IMG/VR virus record: IMGVR_UViG_3300042889_002336
Origin: an uncultured virus (IMG/VR IMGVR_UViG_3300042889_002336)
Lineage: Duplodnaviria; Heunggongvirae; Uroviricota; Caudoviricetes
DNA length: 20,000 nucleotides
Reading direction: 5' to 3' (one strand)
The notes under the pieces are model-generated. The model searched no databases. It saw only the letters and a program-made list of their open reading frames with translations, and was not told the origin of the DNA. The position numbers and the translations under genes were made by a program. Numbering within the stretch: position 1 is the first letter of the stretch; the number at the start of each line of letters is the position of its first letter. Positions 18,109 to 20,000 of this stretch are shown here, piece by piece.

Positions 18109-18741
18109 CTAATAAATTATGCATTCCCCTACCGTAAACAATGCTCCTACCTCGCGAATCTTATCAAAAGCCTCAAAAGGGGTTACCTTGAAAAACTCTC
18201 TAGAACCTCCTCTATCAGAAGAAACCCTAACGGAAGAAAAATGCTTGTGAACGGCCTTCTCCACTTTTAAAGCAGAGCCTTTCTTTACAGGAAGAGCAAA
18301 TTTTGGAACCCATTCCTCAACTGTGGCTGTAGCGTTTATTGCCGTGACTCTCCTAGGAACGTCATGAATGGTCATTCCTATCTTAACGAGGGAAGTATAC
18401 CCGGGATTAACCAGAACGTAAACATACTCGATATCATCAGTAGACCTCTCCTGTATCTTCTTATTCTCTATACCATGGAAGTATCTCCAGGAGAAAGTAT
18501 TTGTATCCTGGTCTACTTGTCCTTCAGATACCTCTATAAGATATCTTGCCGAAAGAAAGTCAAGGAGTTTACCTGGAGATATATGTCTGTGTTTGGATTG
18601 TAGTGTAATGAAGTTCTCTTTCCACTTCTTTCCTACCTTAGGGTAAGGCAAAACAGACTCTGGTGAAGAATCAACAATAGTAATTTCCCCTATTAATTCC
18701 AAGGACATGGCCTCTGCCATACTAATTTTATCTCTATACAT
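18109..18741 (-). CDS. T5orf172-domain (GIY-YIG-like) protein
   Basis: C-terminal YVYVLVNPGYTSLVKIGMT...RRV...EKAVHKHF...REFFKV is the T5orf172/MUG113 pattern. The N-terminal ~100 aa are unrecognised. Confidence 0.85.
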   Translation of the reverse strand: MYRDKISMAEAMSLELIGEITIVDSSPESVLPYPKVGKKWKENFITLQSKHRHISPGKLLDFLSARYLIEVSEGQVDQDTNTFSWRYFHGIENKKIQERSTDDIEYVYVLVNPGYTSLVKIGMTIHDVPRRVTAINATATVEEWVPKFALPVKKGSALKVEKAVHKHFSSVRVSSDRGGSREFFKVTPFEAFDKIREVGALFTVGECIIY

Positions 18742-18756
18742 AACCGTTTTATTTTT

Positions 18757-18954
18757 TTAGTTGAAAAAATCTTCAAATACCGAAGTTAAGAAAGCACCTG
18801 CTACTATAGGCCAAGCAATAATAGTACCTAAGATCTCCATAAGAGTGAATGGTTCACTTGATCTTGTTAGACGAATGGATAGATCTACAAATGCTGCACA
18901 AATAAATCCAATAGCTCCGTATTGAATTAATACGTTTAAAATTAACGTTCCCAT
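18757..18954 (-). CDS. Small membrane protein (about two hydrophobic helices)
   Basis: 65 aa with hydrophobic segments ILNVLIQYGAIGFICAAFV and LMEILGTIIAWPIVAGAFL; has its own promoter. Confidence 0.75.
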   Translation of the reverse strand: MGTLILNVLIQYGAIGFICAAFVDLSIRLTRSSEPFTLMEILGTIIAWPIVAGAFLTSVFEDFFN

Positions 18955-18979
18955 AACCTTTTTGTTTTTAAATTATACA

Positions 18980-19011
18980 TAAAGATAAGAATTTATTAAC
19001 AATCTTCCAAC
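18980..19011 (-). promoter_or_regulatory. Host-type promoter GTTG-N20-TATCTTTA
   Basis: GTTG 19011-19008, 20-nt spacer, TATCTTTA 18987-18980, 25 nt before ATG 18954. Confidence 0.7.
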
Positions 19012-19424
19012 TTTTTTAAGGAAAAAAGGTCGAAATATTTCTGTAAAATAGCACATTTTTCATAATGCTCTACCAAAATAAAAGTCTCTATCATTTCTTC
19101 TAAAGCATATACAATAGCCTCCCTTCCGAATTCTTCCTCTATAATAGATAGCGTATCTGACTGTAGATCCTCAATGCTCCCGATATATTGCATAAGGTCT
19201 GTAAAATACCTTAGTTTAATATTTTCTTTATTGGAGAGATACTTTTCGCCTAACTTCTTTGTATATAAAAGATCCATTACATAATAATTCTCCACACCTG
19301 TTACCATTGTACCGAATCGAATAACTGGATCTTTTAGTAAATCCTCTACGTTATGTTCTTTATATACTTCCTCATCTGTAGCAGAAAATATATCAAATAT
19401 GCTGTTGCTATTTAGTCTTTTCAT
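18996..19424 (-). CDS. Hypothetical protein with a C-terminal UVR (UvrB/C)-like motif
   Basis: 142 aa. ALEEMIETFILVEHYEKCAILQKYFD resembles the ExYExAAxLRD motif. Preceded by TATTTATA 4 nt before the ATG. Confidence 0.65.
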   Translation of the reverse strand: MKRLNSNSIFDIFSATDEEVYKEHNVEDLLKDPVIRFGTMVTGVENYYVMDLLYTKKLGEKYLSNKENIKLRYFTDLMQYIGSIEDLQSDTLSIIEEEFGREAIVYALEEMIETFILVEHYEKCAILQKYFDLFSLKKLEDC

Positions 19425-19428
19425 CTTA

Positions 19429-19436
19429 TATAAATA
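19429..19436 (-). promoter_or_regulatory. Candidate late promoter TATTTATA
   Basis: Minus strand ataTATTTATAtaagATG. Confidence 0.5.
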
Positions 19437-19483
19437 TATATCTTTCTTATAATGAAAAATTTTCCGGAAAAAAACTGGGGGTA

Positions 19484-19515
19484 GTTGGAAAATTGATCAA
19501 AATGTTCTATATTAA
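19484..19515 (+). promoter_or_regulatory. Host-type promoter on the plus strand, GTTG-N20-TATATTAA
   Basis: GTTG 19484-19487, gaaaattgatcaaaatgttc (20 nt), TATATTAA 19508-19515. Same architecture as four minus-strand promoters, but no ORF follows. Confidence 0.6.
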
Positions 19516-19520
19516 ATATA

Positions 19521-19743
19521 AGAAATAAAAGTTCATAATACAATATAAGAGGTAGGTTAGGGGTATAGGTGGTAACCGTGCTAGGGTTTAGCAGCTATAT
19601 AGACCAAACTTTAGAGAGAGGACAACTTGGGCAGTAATTCTTCCTTTGGAAGGACTAGGATTGGATTGGTTGGGTCCATAACAACATCTCTCTTAAAGCT
19701 ATGTAGTATATATAAATATATACCCCCATACCTCAATTTTTAT
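19521..19743 (+). ncRNA. Candidate structured non-coding RNA (~220 nt, interrupted rod)
   Basis: Nested hand-folded helices: 19525-33/19735-43, 19549-54/19729-34, 19560-67/19719-26, 19595-602/19699-706, 19609-19/19687-98, 19620-27/19668-77. Hairpins at 19579-93 and 19638-54. Non-canonical pairs are G-U on the plus strand; it starts just after a promoter. Confidence 0.5.
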
Positions 19744-19818
19744 CAGAAATAGATTACTCTATGTGGCTCCGGATACCCGAGTACCAACCCGTTGAGGGAA
19801 CTTAACTATCAAACTTCT

Positions 19819-19851
19819 CTCAACTTGACCTCACCTTGACGTCACCTTGAC
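19819..19851. repeat. Three tandem 11-bp quasi-palindromic repeats (ctcaacttgac / ctcaccttgac / gtcaccttgac)
   Basis: Read directly; intergenic. Confidence 0.85.
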
Positions 19852-19855
19852 CTAC

Positions 19856-19882
19856 AAGAAAAAAAAGAGGCCTAAGCCTCTC
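19856..19882 (-). terminator. Intrinsic terminator
   Basis: Minus strand AGAGGC-TTAG-GCCTCT followed by TTTTTTTCTT. The stop codon of the upstream partial ORF lies in the loop. Confidence 0.85.
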
Positions 19883-20000
19883 TTATAAATTCTACCAAGT
19901 CTTCAAATCGATACCTAACTACTACTTTCTTATTCATTACAAAGCTAAAAGCTGTAAAGCCTACCCTTCCTATCTTTAATACATTGGCATGATGGCCTTT
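19872..20000 (-). CDS. 3' end of a hypothetical protein (partial)
   Basis: Open frame ...KGHHANVLKIGRVGFTAFSFVMNKKVVVRYRFEDLVEFIREA* from the window edge, ending in the terminator hairpin. Confidence 0.65.
   Translation of the reverse strand, partial: KGHHANVLKIGRVGFTAFSFVMNKKVVVRYRFEDLVEFIREA

Follow-up and report, generated by a model that had tools for sequence, protein, structure and literature searches.

To our knowledge, few phage-encoded structured RNAs have a known role. The prohead RNA of phi29, roughly 120-174 nt long and folded around a multi-helix junction, is known to us only from phi29-like podophages. The RNA described here is likewise phage-encoded, promoter-driven, structured and built on a multi-helix junction, but it has no sequence or model similarity to prohead RNA (Rfam) and belongs to a phage with a T4-like baseplate. 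It resembles bacterial 6S RNA in its size of about 190 nt, in ends that pair as a closing stem, in a partly unpaired centre and a long imperfect arm, and in having the look of an abundant, stable RNA. In contrast to 6S RNA, it matches no 6S model at E-values up to 10, has a four-way junction and a head-to-tail joint, and is encoded by the phage instead of the host. Bacterial Y RNAs (YrlA; Ro60/Rsr; PMC4201824), as portrayed in the accessible part of that source, also hold their 5' and 3' ends in a long bulged stem that leads into a branched module. Our RNA differs from them in that it had no Rfam Y RNA match, showed no T-arm-like motif and was accompanied by no TROVE/Ro60 gene in the phage genomes searched (0/3). 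The TROVE control search matched in Bacteroides, so the host may have a Ro60 of its own. Y RNA operons can include RtcB.

Bacteria have, as far as we know, no splicing endonuclease, and we know of essentially no description of natural circular RNAs, excised introns aside, in bacteria and their DNA phages. Circles derived from the bulge-helix-bulge (BHB) motif in archaea, and tRNA-intron circles in metazoans (PMC4536317), share with our locus, by the accessible sections of that paper, a DNA-encoded small RNA, helix-held ends that are joined, and an RtcB-type ligase as the candidate enzyme. Our locus differs from the systems in those sections in that it has no BHB, has its own promoter, is neither intron nor spacer, and lies in a tailed phage of a bacterium. 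Viroid-like circular RNAs (bioRxiv 10.1101/2022.07.19.500677) are similar in being small and highly paired and in appearing as a cycle or terminal repeat in RNA assemblies. In the available part of that survey they are taken as RNA replicons, often with paired ribozymes, and the one dsDNA-phage case given there is explained as a genome segment with a terminal repeat. Measured against that part, our RNA differs in that a dsDNA phage encodes it, once per genome, in a DNA gene with a promoter, and in that it has no recognised ribozyme. A full-text literature search, together with the same part of the survey (bioRxiv 10.1101/2022.07.19.500677), returned no circular RNA of this kind.

Results

Genome setting and promoters

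The window, by which we mean the whole 20,000-nt stretch of IMG/VR record IMGVR_UViG_3300042889_002336, is a genome fragment from a phage related to Flavobacterium phage immuto. The long ORFs that tile it are all on the minus strand (22/22), and the plus strand from 19400 to 20000 held only ORFs of 20, 22 and 41 aa, which agrees with an initial annotation that had placed every gene on the minus strand and seen no meaningful plus-strand ORF. The same annotation had called the segment G-rich on the plus strand, unlike its flanks; the plus-strand GC skew was +0.29 to +0.35 in 19400-19700 versus about -0.3 in the flanks. A tRNA and tmRNA search of the sequence found none. The features upstream of the RNA are:

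18996..19424, minus: gene of a 142-aa protein, the conserved divergent neighbour of the RNA gene
19484..19515, plus: predicted early RNA promoter of host type (Bacteroidota-like), with -33 GTTG at 19484-87, a 20-nt spacer and -7 box TATATTAA at 19508-15
19513..19544, minus: putative interleaved divergent promoter of the 142-aa gene, with -33 ATTG at 19544->19541, a 20-nt spacer and -7 box TATATTTA at 19520->19513
19520..19545, plus: leader, present in the window's clade only and equal to the spacer of the minus-strand promoter

The neighbouring protein gave an all-helical predicted model (pLDDT 85) with no match in a PDB fold search at E-values up to 0.001, and an Atlas search gave no family. 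Its gene still adjoins the RNA gene in phages in which the protein is only 37-42% identical.

A rightward promoter GTTG-N20-TATATTAA, of the same form as others in the window, had been noted previously. We found it at 19484-19515, with a predicted +1 near 19520; its class follows the Bacteroidota promoter consensus, which we take to fit this host. The looser form GTTG-N19-21-TATNTT occurred 5 times in the window versus 1.41 expected, the other four sites being on the minus strand, and the strict form GTTG-N17-23-TATATTA occurred at the RNA promoter alone. The promoter is conserved: GT[TA]G-N19-21-TAT[AT]TT lies upstream of the RNA core in 27/27 relatives, as it does in two distant homologues, L101 and L103. 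Box and core are separated by 33-35 nt in most relatives (20), by 0-2 nt in 4 and by 56-97 nt in 3. The predicted +1 is the first G of the closing helix P1 in 4 relatives, and falls 4-5 nt before P1 in L101 and L103. In the complete relative immuto (160 kb), the promoter form occurred 41 times on the gene strand and 10 times on the other (3.7 expected per strand), and 25 of the 41 gene-strand sites cluster at 60.8-76.2 kb, in a block of small ORFs that ends at the RNA locus. Because the same form marks the sites of this block, we assigned the RNA to the early class.

The minus-strand motif would, judged by its form, be the promoter of the 142-aa gene, with a predicted start near 19508. Its -33 element, ATTG in the window, is GTTG in relatives, its -7 box overlaps that of the RNA promoter, and its immuto counterpart (74413-74445) was picked up by the promoter scan. 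The leader is part of an imperfect 24-nt duplication (19500-23 / 19527-50, 75% identity) and lies outside the span covered by RNA contigs.

A conserved four-way junction with a long bulged arm

In its fold, the RNA core (19549-19734) has a four-way junction that carries a long bulged arm. Its parts are:

19546..19739, plus: RNA as seen in RNA libraries, comprising the P1 closing stem and a few flanking A/U, with the ends joined head-to-tail
19549..19567, plus: 5' strands of the closing stem, P1 GAGGTA at 19549-54 (with 19729-34), internal loop GGTTA, and P2 GGGGTATA at 19560-67 (with 19719-26)
19568..19593, plus: nearly invariant mini-hairpins of the four-way junction, P3 GGT-GGTA-ACC at 19568-77 and P4 TGCTA-GGGTT-TAGCA at 19579-93
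19594..19707, plus: long arm, P5 19594-602/19699-707, P6 19609-13/19694-98, P7 19614-19/19687-92, P8 TGGGC/GTCCA 19628-32/19674-78
19603-08, plus: conserved ACCAAA bulge of the long arm
19638-44/19648-54, plus: hairpin P9 in the variable arm tip
19708..19734, plus: 3' part of the core, invariant in relatives, with an unpaired AU-rich joining strand 19708-18, the P2 3' strand 19719-26 and the P1 3' strand 19729-34

The minimum free energy (MFE) fold of 19546-19739 as a single sequence gives helices P1-P8. Covariation was tested on 27 model-aligned relatives with 500 shuffles. In this set 94.1% of cells pair, and 27/53 pairs change on both sides, which 0/500 shuffles equalled; because the relatives all belong to a single narrow phage lineage, many of these events are inherited and not independent. 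A MAFFT alignment gave 93.6% of cells paired versus 36-52% with slid partners, and 14 pairs changed on both sides (0/500 shuffles). Among relatives P2 is 100% paired and P1 90%. Changes on both sides were found in 6/9 pairs of P5, 9/11 of P6/7, 5/5 of P8 and 4/6 of P9, and P4 varied from GCTA/TAGC to GCTT/AAGC. An internal loop of the long arm is conserved, its two sides reading GGACAMCT and ATAACWACA, whereas relatives differ in the size of the arm tip, by -27 to +120 nt. In L101 and L144 the fourth P2 pair is A-U instead of G-C. RNAalifold proposed an outer register, GGGGTAT with ATACCTC, which we rejected because this G-to-A change is compensated only in the GGGGTATA/TATACCCC register.

Most of the pairs listed in the initial annotation proved real and conserved, namely GAGGTA/TACCTC, GGGGTATA/TATACCCC and CTATATAG/CTATGTAG, which appear in the alignments and in the MFE fold, as well as CTTTA-GAGAGA/TCTCTC-t-TAAAG and the hairpin TTCTTCC-TTT-GGAAGGA. 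Its outermost stem (19525-33/19735-43) does form in the window, but is not conserved, its 5' half lying in the leader that is missing from 4/27 relatives and from the distant homologues. The proposed GGAC-AACT/GGTT-gg-GTCC is not the covarying pairing, which is TGGGC (19628-32)/GTCCA (19674-78), with 5/5 pairs changed on both sides. What had been taken as a large asymmetric junction holds the two conserved hairpins at 19568-77 and 19579-93, and is a four-way junction, with no open bubble.

Strand

Pairs that are G-U on the plus strand, and A-C on the minus strand, outnumbered the reverse by 104 to 26 in the MAFFT alignment and by 102 to 16 in the model-fitted alignment, extending to relatives the preference that had been read from the window. 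The excess of 102:16, together with the upstream promoter kept in 27/27 relatives, places the RNA on the plus strand. Folding energy against shuffled sequence had been suggested as a check on both strands. The locus does fold better than shuffles, but the two strands are not told apart: z was -2.63 on plus, with 4/200 shuffles doing as well, and -3.09 on minus, with 0/200, for 19521-19745, and -2.85 on plus (2/200) and -3.84 on minus (0/200) for 19546-19739. Since both strands beat shuffles, the z-score does not serve as a strand test. Covariation, the G-U excess and the conserved promoter agree with one another and support the earlier proposal of a structured, non-coding plus-strand RNA that has its own promoter and runs counter to the genes.

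A head-to-tail joint in RNA libraries

In four of four metatranscriptome runs, from four studies, the RNA assembled as a closed cycle in which about 19738 leads back to about 19546. The evidence consists of assembled contigs, which show presence and not strand, true ends, abundance or proportion; the strand of the joined RNA was taken from the G-U/A-C count and promoter conservation. The joints were 19739->19546, 19738->19544, 19738->19546 and 19736-AT-19548. Each run gave one contig of 221-225 nt, equal to the joined span plus 30 (224/194, 225/195, 221/191 and 223/193), with no loose ends. The joint varied between runs by a few A/U, giving loops of 5, 7, 8 and 9 nt, which may reflect strain differences or imprecise ends. 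A search for the joint pattern in DNA collections in which the linear locus does occur found it in none of 241 million metagenome records and 2.9 million viral contigs. No RNA contig covered the flanks (18500-19543 and 19740-20000). The stopping points shared by the contigs of the four studies are a weak hint, and weakly indicate that the RNA ends at the foot of P1.

Distribution

The RNA was present in one copy in each of three genomes searched, and is conserved in a lineage of Flavobacterium phages from fresh water and the Baltic. In the more distant phages (neighbour protein 37-42% identical) it was found at the same place, with 77.4 and 46.6 bits. A pattern search found the linear arrangement in 28 metagenome records, of which the model confirmed 26, the other 2 being chance. 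Matches of 30 genome contigs to a 17-mer, which would have been bacterial homologues, were all chance, the model matching 0 of them; L044 shares merely a 22-23-mer with the locus.

The 3' flank

Beyond the RNA, and on the minus strand within it, lie these elements:

19718->19711, minus: candidate late-promoter motif TATTTATA, the minus reading of the invariant joining strand
19740..19819: conserved 3' flank with CAGAAAT, ACCCGA and CTATCAAACTT, outside the RNA contig span
19820..19853: three direct repeats, 11 nt apart, TCAACTTGACCT / TCACCTTGACGT / TCACCTTGACCT
19863..19884, minus: intrinsic terminator of the upstream minus-strand gene, a hairpin then a T-run on minus (A-run 19859-66 on plus)

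An RNA fold of the 3' flank was rejected for want of covariation support: the consensus fold has -1.54 kcal/mol, and 1/15 pairs changes on both sides. The repeats keep their spacing and their GACNTCAC core in distant homologues, and may be binding sites for a DNA-binding protein. The terminator stem covaries (AGAGGCC.../GTTAGTC...).

Comparison with RNA families

Rfam at gathering thresholds gave 0 matches over the whole window, and at E-values up to 10 gave 11, 3 and 1 chance-level matches for 19300-20000, 19715-19870 and 19515-19760, the best being FtrA at 30.7 bits versus a gathering score of 134. Neither RF00013 nor the Flavobacteria 6S family was among the matches at E-values up to 10 for the linear locus. 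The initial annotation had drawn a tentative analogy with 6S RNA and proposed this Rfam check; besides the lack of a match, the centre with its two invariant hairpins lends it no support. Set beside the 6S layout, the locus has the closing stem and the long arm, but the 5' side of its centre forms the two hairpins, and on the 3' side only 11 nt (19708-18) are unpaired, the AU-rich strand that had been described. The phage sigma factor said to be encoded 3.5 kb away found no support: near 16 kb, neither Pfam (E-values up to 5) nor PDB sequences nor the annotation of the relative showed one. No self-cleaving ribozyme (hammerhead, hairpin, twister, pistol, hatchet or HDV-like) was found in Rfam searches of the linear locus.

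Several other classes were rejected. A group I intron circle had no Rfam Intron_gpI match at E-values up to 10, and the RNA ends 3' in AAUUU without a G. For a circularly permuted group II or intron-exon circle, box and core are 0-35 nt apart in 24/27 relatives, the 3' flank has no conserved fold and no Rfam intron family matched. RVT_1, sought for a retron or DRT-type template RNA, was found in 0/3 phage genomes, and every ring frame meets 9-18 stops in three turns, which also disposes of an endless ORF around a ring. A joint of the viroid type was seen in 4/4 RNA runs and may be an artefact; an RNA replicon lacking a DNA gene was rejected, the RNA being encoded once per phage genome behind a promoter. 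We concluded that the RNA matches no described family and that its gene founds a previously undescribed family of phage non-coding RNA.

Discussion

We consider it probable that the locus makes an early phage RNA of a new family that is trimmed to its closing stem and circularised. The fuller reading, to which we give roughly even chances, is of a dedicated and separately promoted tailed-phage gene whose product is a covalently closed circular RNA, made without intron, BHB motif or recognisable ribozyme by sealing helix-held ends, and deployed early, exonuclease-proof, against a host protein. Several points weigh against a ring. A few template-switched cDNAs on a linear RNA with P1-held ends could close the assembly graph in the same way, and in the window's clade a leader of about 26 nt needs removal, for which no processing signal was found. 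The joint might thus come from a stable linear RNA, likewise trimmed to the closing stem, on which reverse transcriptase jumps from the 5' end to the nearby 3' end so that the assembler closes the graph. P1 brings the ends to within a few nucleotides of each other, the position of the joint shifts by 1-4 nt from run to run, contigs speak of presence and not of proportion, and RtcB is missing from 3/3 and an Rnl2-family ligase from 2/3 of the phage genomes searched. Yet random template switching should yield mixed joints, whereas each of the four runs gave a single clean cycle, of exactly the joined span plus 30, with no competing paths reported; we hold this linear explanation to be doubtful, if the most serious of those opposed to a ring. 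It is quite improbable, in our analysis, that the ring would process itself, with core and conserved 3' flank acting as self-cleaving ribozymes that cut their own 5' edges, and host RtcB joining 5'-OH to 2',3'-cyclic phosphate as in engineered ribozyme-flanked systems. Such a scheme could draw on the invariant nucleotides at the junction, on CAGAAAT, conserved in all clades just past the 3' end, and on a 5' flank that needs no conserved sequence, the promoter position varying there. Against it stand the absence of a ribozyme family match for the linear locus, a 3' flank without a covarying fold, and a CUGAUGA-like minus-strand string that is missing in the window, L101 and L103. Moreover, ribozymes cut precisely whereas the joint varies by a few nucleotides, and in relatives whose promoter directly adjoins P1 hardly anything would be left to cleave off.

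The remaining explanations concern what the locus does. A decoy of the 6S kind, in which closing stem, opened centre and long arm would mimic an open promoter, sequester the host sigma-A holoenzyme and aid the switch to phage transcription, fits the size of about 190 nt, the order of closing stem, central unpaired region and long arm, and the early promoter; its unpaired 3' strand UAUAUAAA also equals the RNA's own -7 box TATATTAA at 7/8 positions. However, likeness between AT-only strings is weak evidence, the 5' centre is folded into invariant hairpins of a four-way junction, no 6S family matched and no sigma gene was found nearby. The RNA motif is, moreover, the complement of the candidate late-promoter motif TATTTATA, and hence not the non-template sense of that promoter, so we regard the decoy as unlikely. 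We think it very improbable that the locus acts at the DNA level, as a replication origin or regulatory hub at which the RNA would be a primer, or an activating transcript that extends into the 11-bp-spaced repeats, as happens at transcription-activated origins. The promoter does read toward the repeats, and three 11-bp-spaced repeats, an A-run and an 18-bp AT palindrome are kept in distant relatives without an RNA fold. But covariation shows selection on the RNA fold itself, the repeats are uncovered by RNA contigs (weak evidence), and the cumulative GC skew of the complete relative climbs steadily and, though its slope changes near 74-80 kb, has no turning point; the replication primer that the initial annotation had offered as an alternative thus found no origin signal there. 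A minus-strand feature is the least probable of all and would be most surprising. The immuto record has a CDS annotated at the locus (immuto35A_143, 51 aa), by z-score the minus strand folds no worse than the plus, and the candidate late-promoter motif is on the minus strand, so that a small protein or a structured leader of the 142-aa gene might be imagined. Yet the 102 G-U pairs would become A-C mismatches, a transcript from TATTTATA would begin near 19700 while RNA contigs extend to 19739, and the 142-aa gene has its own predicted promoter at 19544->19513. The small protein was rejected: from the shared ATG the ORF is 10-30 aa with stops at differing places in the 27 relatives, and the differences in core length are not multiples of three.

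If the RNA is trimmed and circularised as we favour, its course might be as follows. Early in infection, host RNA polymerase would start at the Bacteroidota-type promoter GTTG-N20-TATATTAA and transcribe rightwards, against all other genes. The transcript would fold into the P1+P2 closing stem, the four-way junction with its two invariant mini-hairpins, the unpaired AU-rich strand, and the long bulged arm with its variable tip. The part that persists would be that from P1 to P1, about 191-195 nt, with its two ends meeting below P1 in an A/U loop of 5-9 nt and covalently joined to give a ring without ends. The likeliest step on the proposed route is that nucleases remove the leader and the trailer as far as the stable stem; in clades whose promoter lies directly against P1, the transcript may instead start there, and it may stop in the U-run after P1. 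A leader-trailer duplex for RNase III-type processing was rejected, the pairing being inconsistent (z -2.5 to +1.3 in 14 rows scored). Next in likelihood, an RNA ligase, possibly host RtcB or an Rnl-type enzyme, would seal the P1-held ends. An RNA_ligase gene (PF09414; Rnl2-family) was found in 1/3 phage genomes searched, with none of the Rnl2 type in immuto or the window fragment; RtcB was found in 0/3, and a T4 Rnl1 search had no match in the phage genomes, its control matching nowhere either. The least certain step, a guess, is that the long-lived ring might act in trans by binding and titrating a host or phage protein.

The system is tractable, given the strong covariation, the early promoter, environmental RNA from four studies, and cultured immuto phages, which grow on Flavobacterium sp. 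LMO8. Should the joint prove an artefact, it would be a useful caution for surveys in which cycles in an assembly are taken as circular RNAs, and the new RNA family would still stand. If the ring is true, it could provide a natural scaffold for stable RNA expression in Bacteroidota. It would also open the question of how bacteria or their phages circularise RNA, and of what role an RNA without ends may play in host takeover, for example as a decoy for polymerase, nucleases or defence sensors.

The locus and its neighboring genes

Within a 58.7-kb viral fragment in IMG/VR, the window corresponds to bases 1066–21065, read on the reverse strand. Among named phages, the closest to it are the Flavobacterium phages vB_FspM_immuto (hereafter immuto), which belong to the genus Immutovirus, have genomes of 160 kb and infect Flavobacterium sp. 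LMO8; they matched window positions 19300–20000 at 87.7–87.8% identity across 91%. As the initial annotation had stated, all genes lie on the minus strand (22 of 22 long ORFs tiling the window), and the RNA segment is G-rich on plus. No plus-strand ORF in 19400–20000 exceeds 41 aa. The ORF products include baseplate wedge proteins, an HD phosphohydrolase and a T5orf172 protein. The RNA locus lies in a 430-nt gap between a minus-strand terminator and the start of a 142-aa gene at 19424; in the comparison with immuto, this gap was more conserved than the adjoining coding sequence. The 142-aa neighbor is an all-helical protein, for which a search for informative relatives found none. The features of the locus are as follows.

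19429–19436, minus sense: copy of TATTTATA, 4 nt before the 142-aa gene
19484–19515, plus: promoter GTTG-N20-TATATTAA, pointing right
19544→19541 (ATTG; GTTG in relatives) and 19520→19513 (TATATTTA), minus: second promoter, spacer 20 nt
19549–54 / 19729–34, plus: helix P1, GAGGTA/TACCTC
19560–67 / 19719–26, plus: helix P2, separated from P1 by an internal loop
19568–77 and 19579–93, plus: P3 and P4, nearly invariant hairpins of a four-way junction
19708–18, plus: unpaired AU-rich junction strand
19718→19711, minus: copy of TATTTATA, antisense inside the RNA gene
19820–19853: three direct repeats, spacing exactly 11 nt, core GACNTCAC, conserved in distant relatives
19863–19884, minus: strong terminator of the upstream gene

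A long arm (P5-P6-P7-P8) completes the fold. Its ACCAAA bulge and an internal loop are conserved, and its tip varies, from −27 nt to about +120 nt across relatives. An extra domain of ~85–120 nt replaces the ACCAAA bulge in six related loci (L047, L053, L029, L116, L124, L144), and the core junction is unchanged in them.

Covariation and coding strand of the RNA

We collected relatives by two exact-motif scans of IMG/VR (21 and 32 loci) and aligned 24 core sequences with MAFFT after duplicate removal. With a structure based on the helices of the window, pairing was possible in 93.6% of the cells of this alignment, vs 36–52% when partners were slid by 1–3 columns. Both sides had changed in 14 pairs, and none of 500 shuffles reached the observed value on any measure. 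A covariance model built from the alignment detected the RNA in all 27 relatives (50–230 bits), always on the promoter strand, with one match each in the window's fragment, a 150.7-kb relative and immuto. In the model-fitted alignment, which is biased towards the structure, 94.1% of cells paired and 27 of 53 pairs changed on both sides. Further loci were fetched via the neighboring 142-aa protein, including phages in which it is only 37–42% identical. Three of four such loci keep the RNA upstream in divergent orientation (77.4 and 46.6 bits); the fourth was without upstream DNA. Bacterial genomes yielded no homologue within the range that a 17-mer scan can detect.

One contig of another phage (L044) was dropped from the relatives because it shares only a 22-mer, and the covariance model found no match in it. 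This 108,841-nt IMG/VR contig of an RNA-less phage carries, at 1501–1523 and directly upstream of a 176-aa ORF, an exact 22–23-mer of the RNA's invariant 3′ part, which may be left over from recombination or be a promoter-like element common to the two phages.

Folding energy told us less. The z-scores on the two strands were −2.63 and −3.09 for 19521–19745, and −2.85 and −3.84 for 19546–19739; the expectation of a fold better than shuffled sequence was thus moderately upheld, but both strands behaved alike and gave no strand call, so that folding energy alone proves little. The preference for G-U over A-C pairs did favor the plus strand, as first proposed (104 vs 26 in the MAFFT alignment, 102 vs 16 in the model alignment).

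Not all of the helices first proposed survived. The GGGGTATA/TATACCCC register of P2 was supported by its fourth pair, which is A-U and not G-C in the distant homologue L101 and in L144, a locus from a further scan; this swap disfavors the alternative register given by RNAalifold. The outer stem 19525–33/19735–43 was abandoned, being partly in a leader missing from other clades, and GGAC-AACT/GGTT-gg-GTCC gave way to TGGGC/GTCCA (19628–32/19674–78), which covaries in its place. In the 3′ flank (19740–19862), sequence is kept even in distant phages without covariation, and no RNA fold that we sought there was supported. The direct repeats in this flank, which adjoin an A-run and the terminator, are candidate sites for a DNA-binding protein, as their arrangement suggests.

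Interleaved promoters and a candidate late motif

The rightward promoter was present as initially annotated, and a promoter aimed into the core is kept in every relative. Against 1.41 expected sites, the window has 5 of the looser form GTTG-N19-21-TATNTT; apart from the RNA promoter, all are on minus. In complete immuto, the gene strand has 41 sites of a similar form and the opposite strand 10 (expected, 3.7 per strand); 25 of them are concentrated at 60.8–76.2 kb, where small ORFs form a block whose end is the RNA locus. We read these promoters as an early, host-polymerase class; their form is similar to the TTG / TAnnTTTG consensus of Bacteroidota promoters.

The second promoter (19513–19544, minus) would, from its motifs, serve the 142-aa gene. 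Its −7 box overlaps that of the RNA promoter, so the two are interleaved and fire in opposite directions. In the window's clade the leader of the RNA, 19520–19545, is the spacer of this second promoter. Polymerase can probably occupy only one of them at a time, which might allow switching between expression of the RNA and that of the 142-aa gene. The −33 element of each falls within the other's transcribed region. An imperfect 24-nt duplication of the −7 region (19500–23 / 19527–50, 75% identity) seems to have created this arrangement. If the second copy acted like the first, it would put a start at ~19547, a position that coincides with the 5′ end in the RNA contigs.

Two immuto annotations touch this region. 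The annotation of the 51-aa immuto35A_143 (MW353176.1 74221–74376), which covers the RNA but on the strand opposite to it, is probably mistaken; this CDS is not conserved, the ORF from the shared ATG measuring 10–30 aa in 27 relatives. The start of immuto35A_144 (MW353176.1 74430–74948) is probably annotated ~30 codons too early, because the annotated ORF crosses both promoters.

The motif TATTTATA looks like a candidate late promoter. It occurs in immuto 30 times on the gene strand vs 15 on the other, and for 22 of the 30 gene-strand copies an ORF, mostly a structural gene, begins no more than 25 nt downstream. Since one copy lies antisense within the RNA gene, late antisense transcription through it is possible.

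A head-to-tail joint in RNA libraries

Of the sampled words of 19440–19900, 23–29% were present in each of six metatranscriptome runs. Four of these runs, from four studies, were mapped onto 18500–20000, and each gave one main contig, of 224, 225, 221 and 223 nt, spanning 19546–19739, 19544–19738, 19548–19736 and 19546–19738, respectively. In all four of these independent RNA data sets the right end goes back to the left end, in one contig with two extra letters, AT. At the base of P1, the joint falls within an A/U loop of 5–9 nt. Every contig is as long as its joined span plus 30, the length that a 31-mer assembly graph (31 presumably being the k used) would print for a closed cycle, and no loose ends were reported for any of them.

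The joint pattern had no match in 241 million metagenome records and 2.9 million viral contigs, while a control pattern for the linear arrangement was found in 28 metagenome records, 26 of them confirmed by the covariance model. We concluded that ordinary phage DNA does not account for the joined molecule. The contigs show no strand, stoichiometry or true ends, and a linear RNA with its ends held together could yield them if a minority of template-switched cDNAs closed the assembly graph. We consider it fairly likely that the RNA is a ring.

The ends of the RNA lie close against P1. On the 5′ side, the start predicted for other clades coincides with P1 or is no more than 5 nt from it: in L031, L034, L039 and L048 the nearness of the −7 box puts the predicted +1 on the first G of P1, and in the distant homologues L101 and L103 it is 4–5 nt upstream. 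In the window's clade, ~26 nt would have to be removed. The 3′ end falls within the U-run after P1 (AAUUUUU), kept in most relatives, L037 being an exception. These ends are compatible with termination and equally with a transcript trimmed back as far as the stem. We found no consistent leader-trailer duplex in the 14 sequences scored, and no known ribozyme or intron in Rfam searches of the locus. RtcB was found in none of three phage genomes and was present in a Bacteroides control, so the host enzyme is a possible ligase. An Rnl2-family RNA ligase occurs in one of the three, the 150.7-kb relative L068 (G001:C1:41866-42456, PF09414, 46.5 bits, 381-aa frame), and in neither immuto nor the window's fragment.

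Identity of the RNA

The initial annotation had tentatively likened the RNA to 6S RNA. Rfam searches matched no family, 6S included; membership is not supported, the analogy is only weakly so, and the claim of a phage sigma encoded 3.5 kb away found no support in Pfam, in PDB sequences or in the annotation of the relative. GC skew gave no sign of an origin, the three phage genomes carried neither a Ro60 gene nor a reverse transcriptase, and no endless ORF would run around a ring. Within the reach of a full-text literature search, no phage RNA of this kind had been described. We conclude that the plus strand in these phages encodes a real and conserved structured RNA, which is driven by an early promoter and belongs to a new family, and our best guess is that it is a long-lived, probably circular RNA that titrates a protein.
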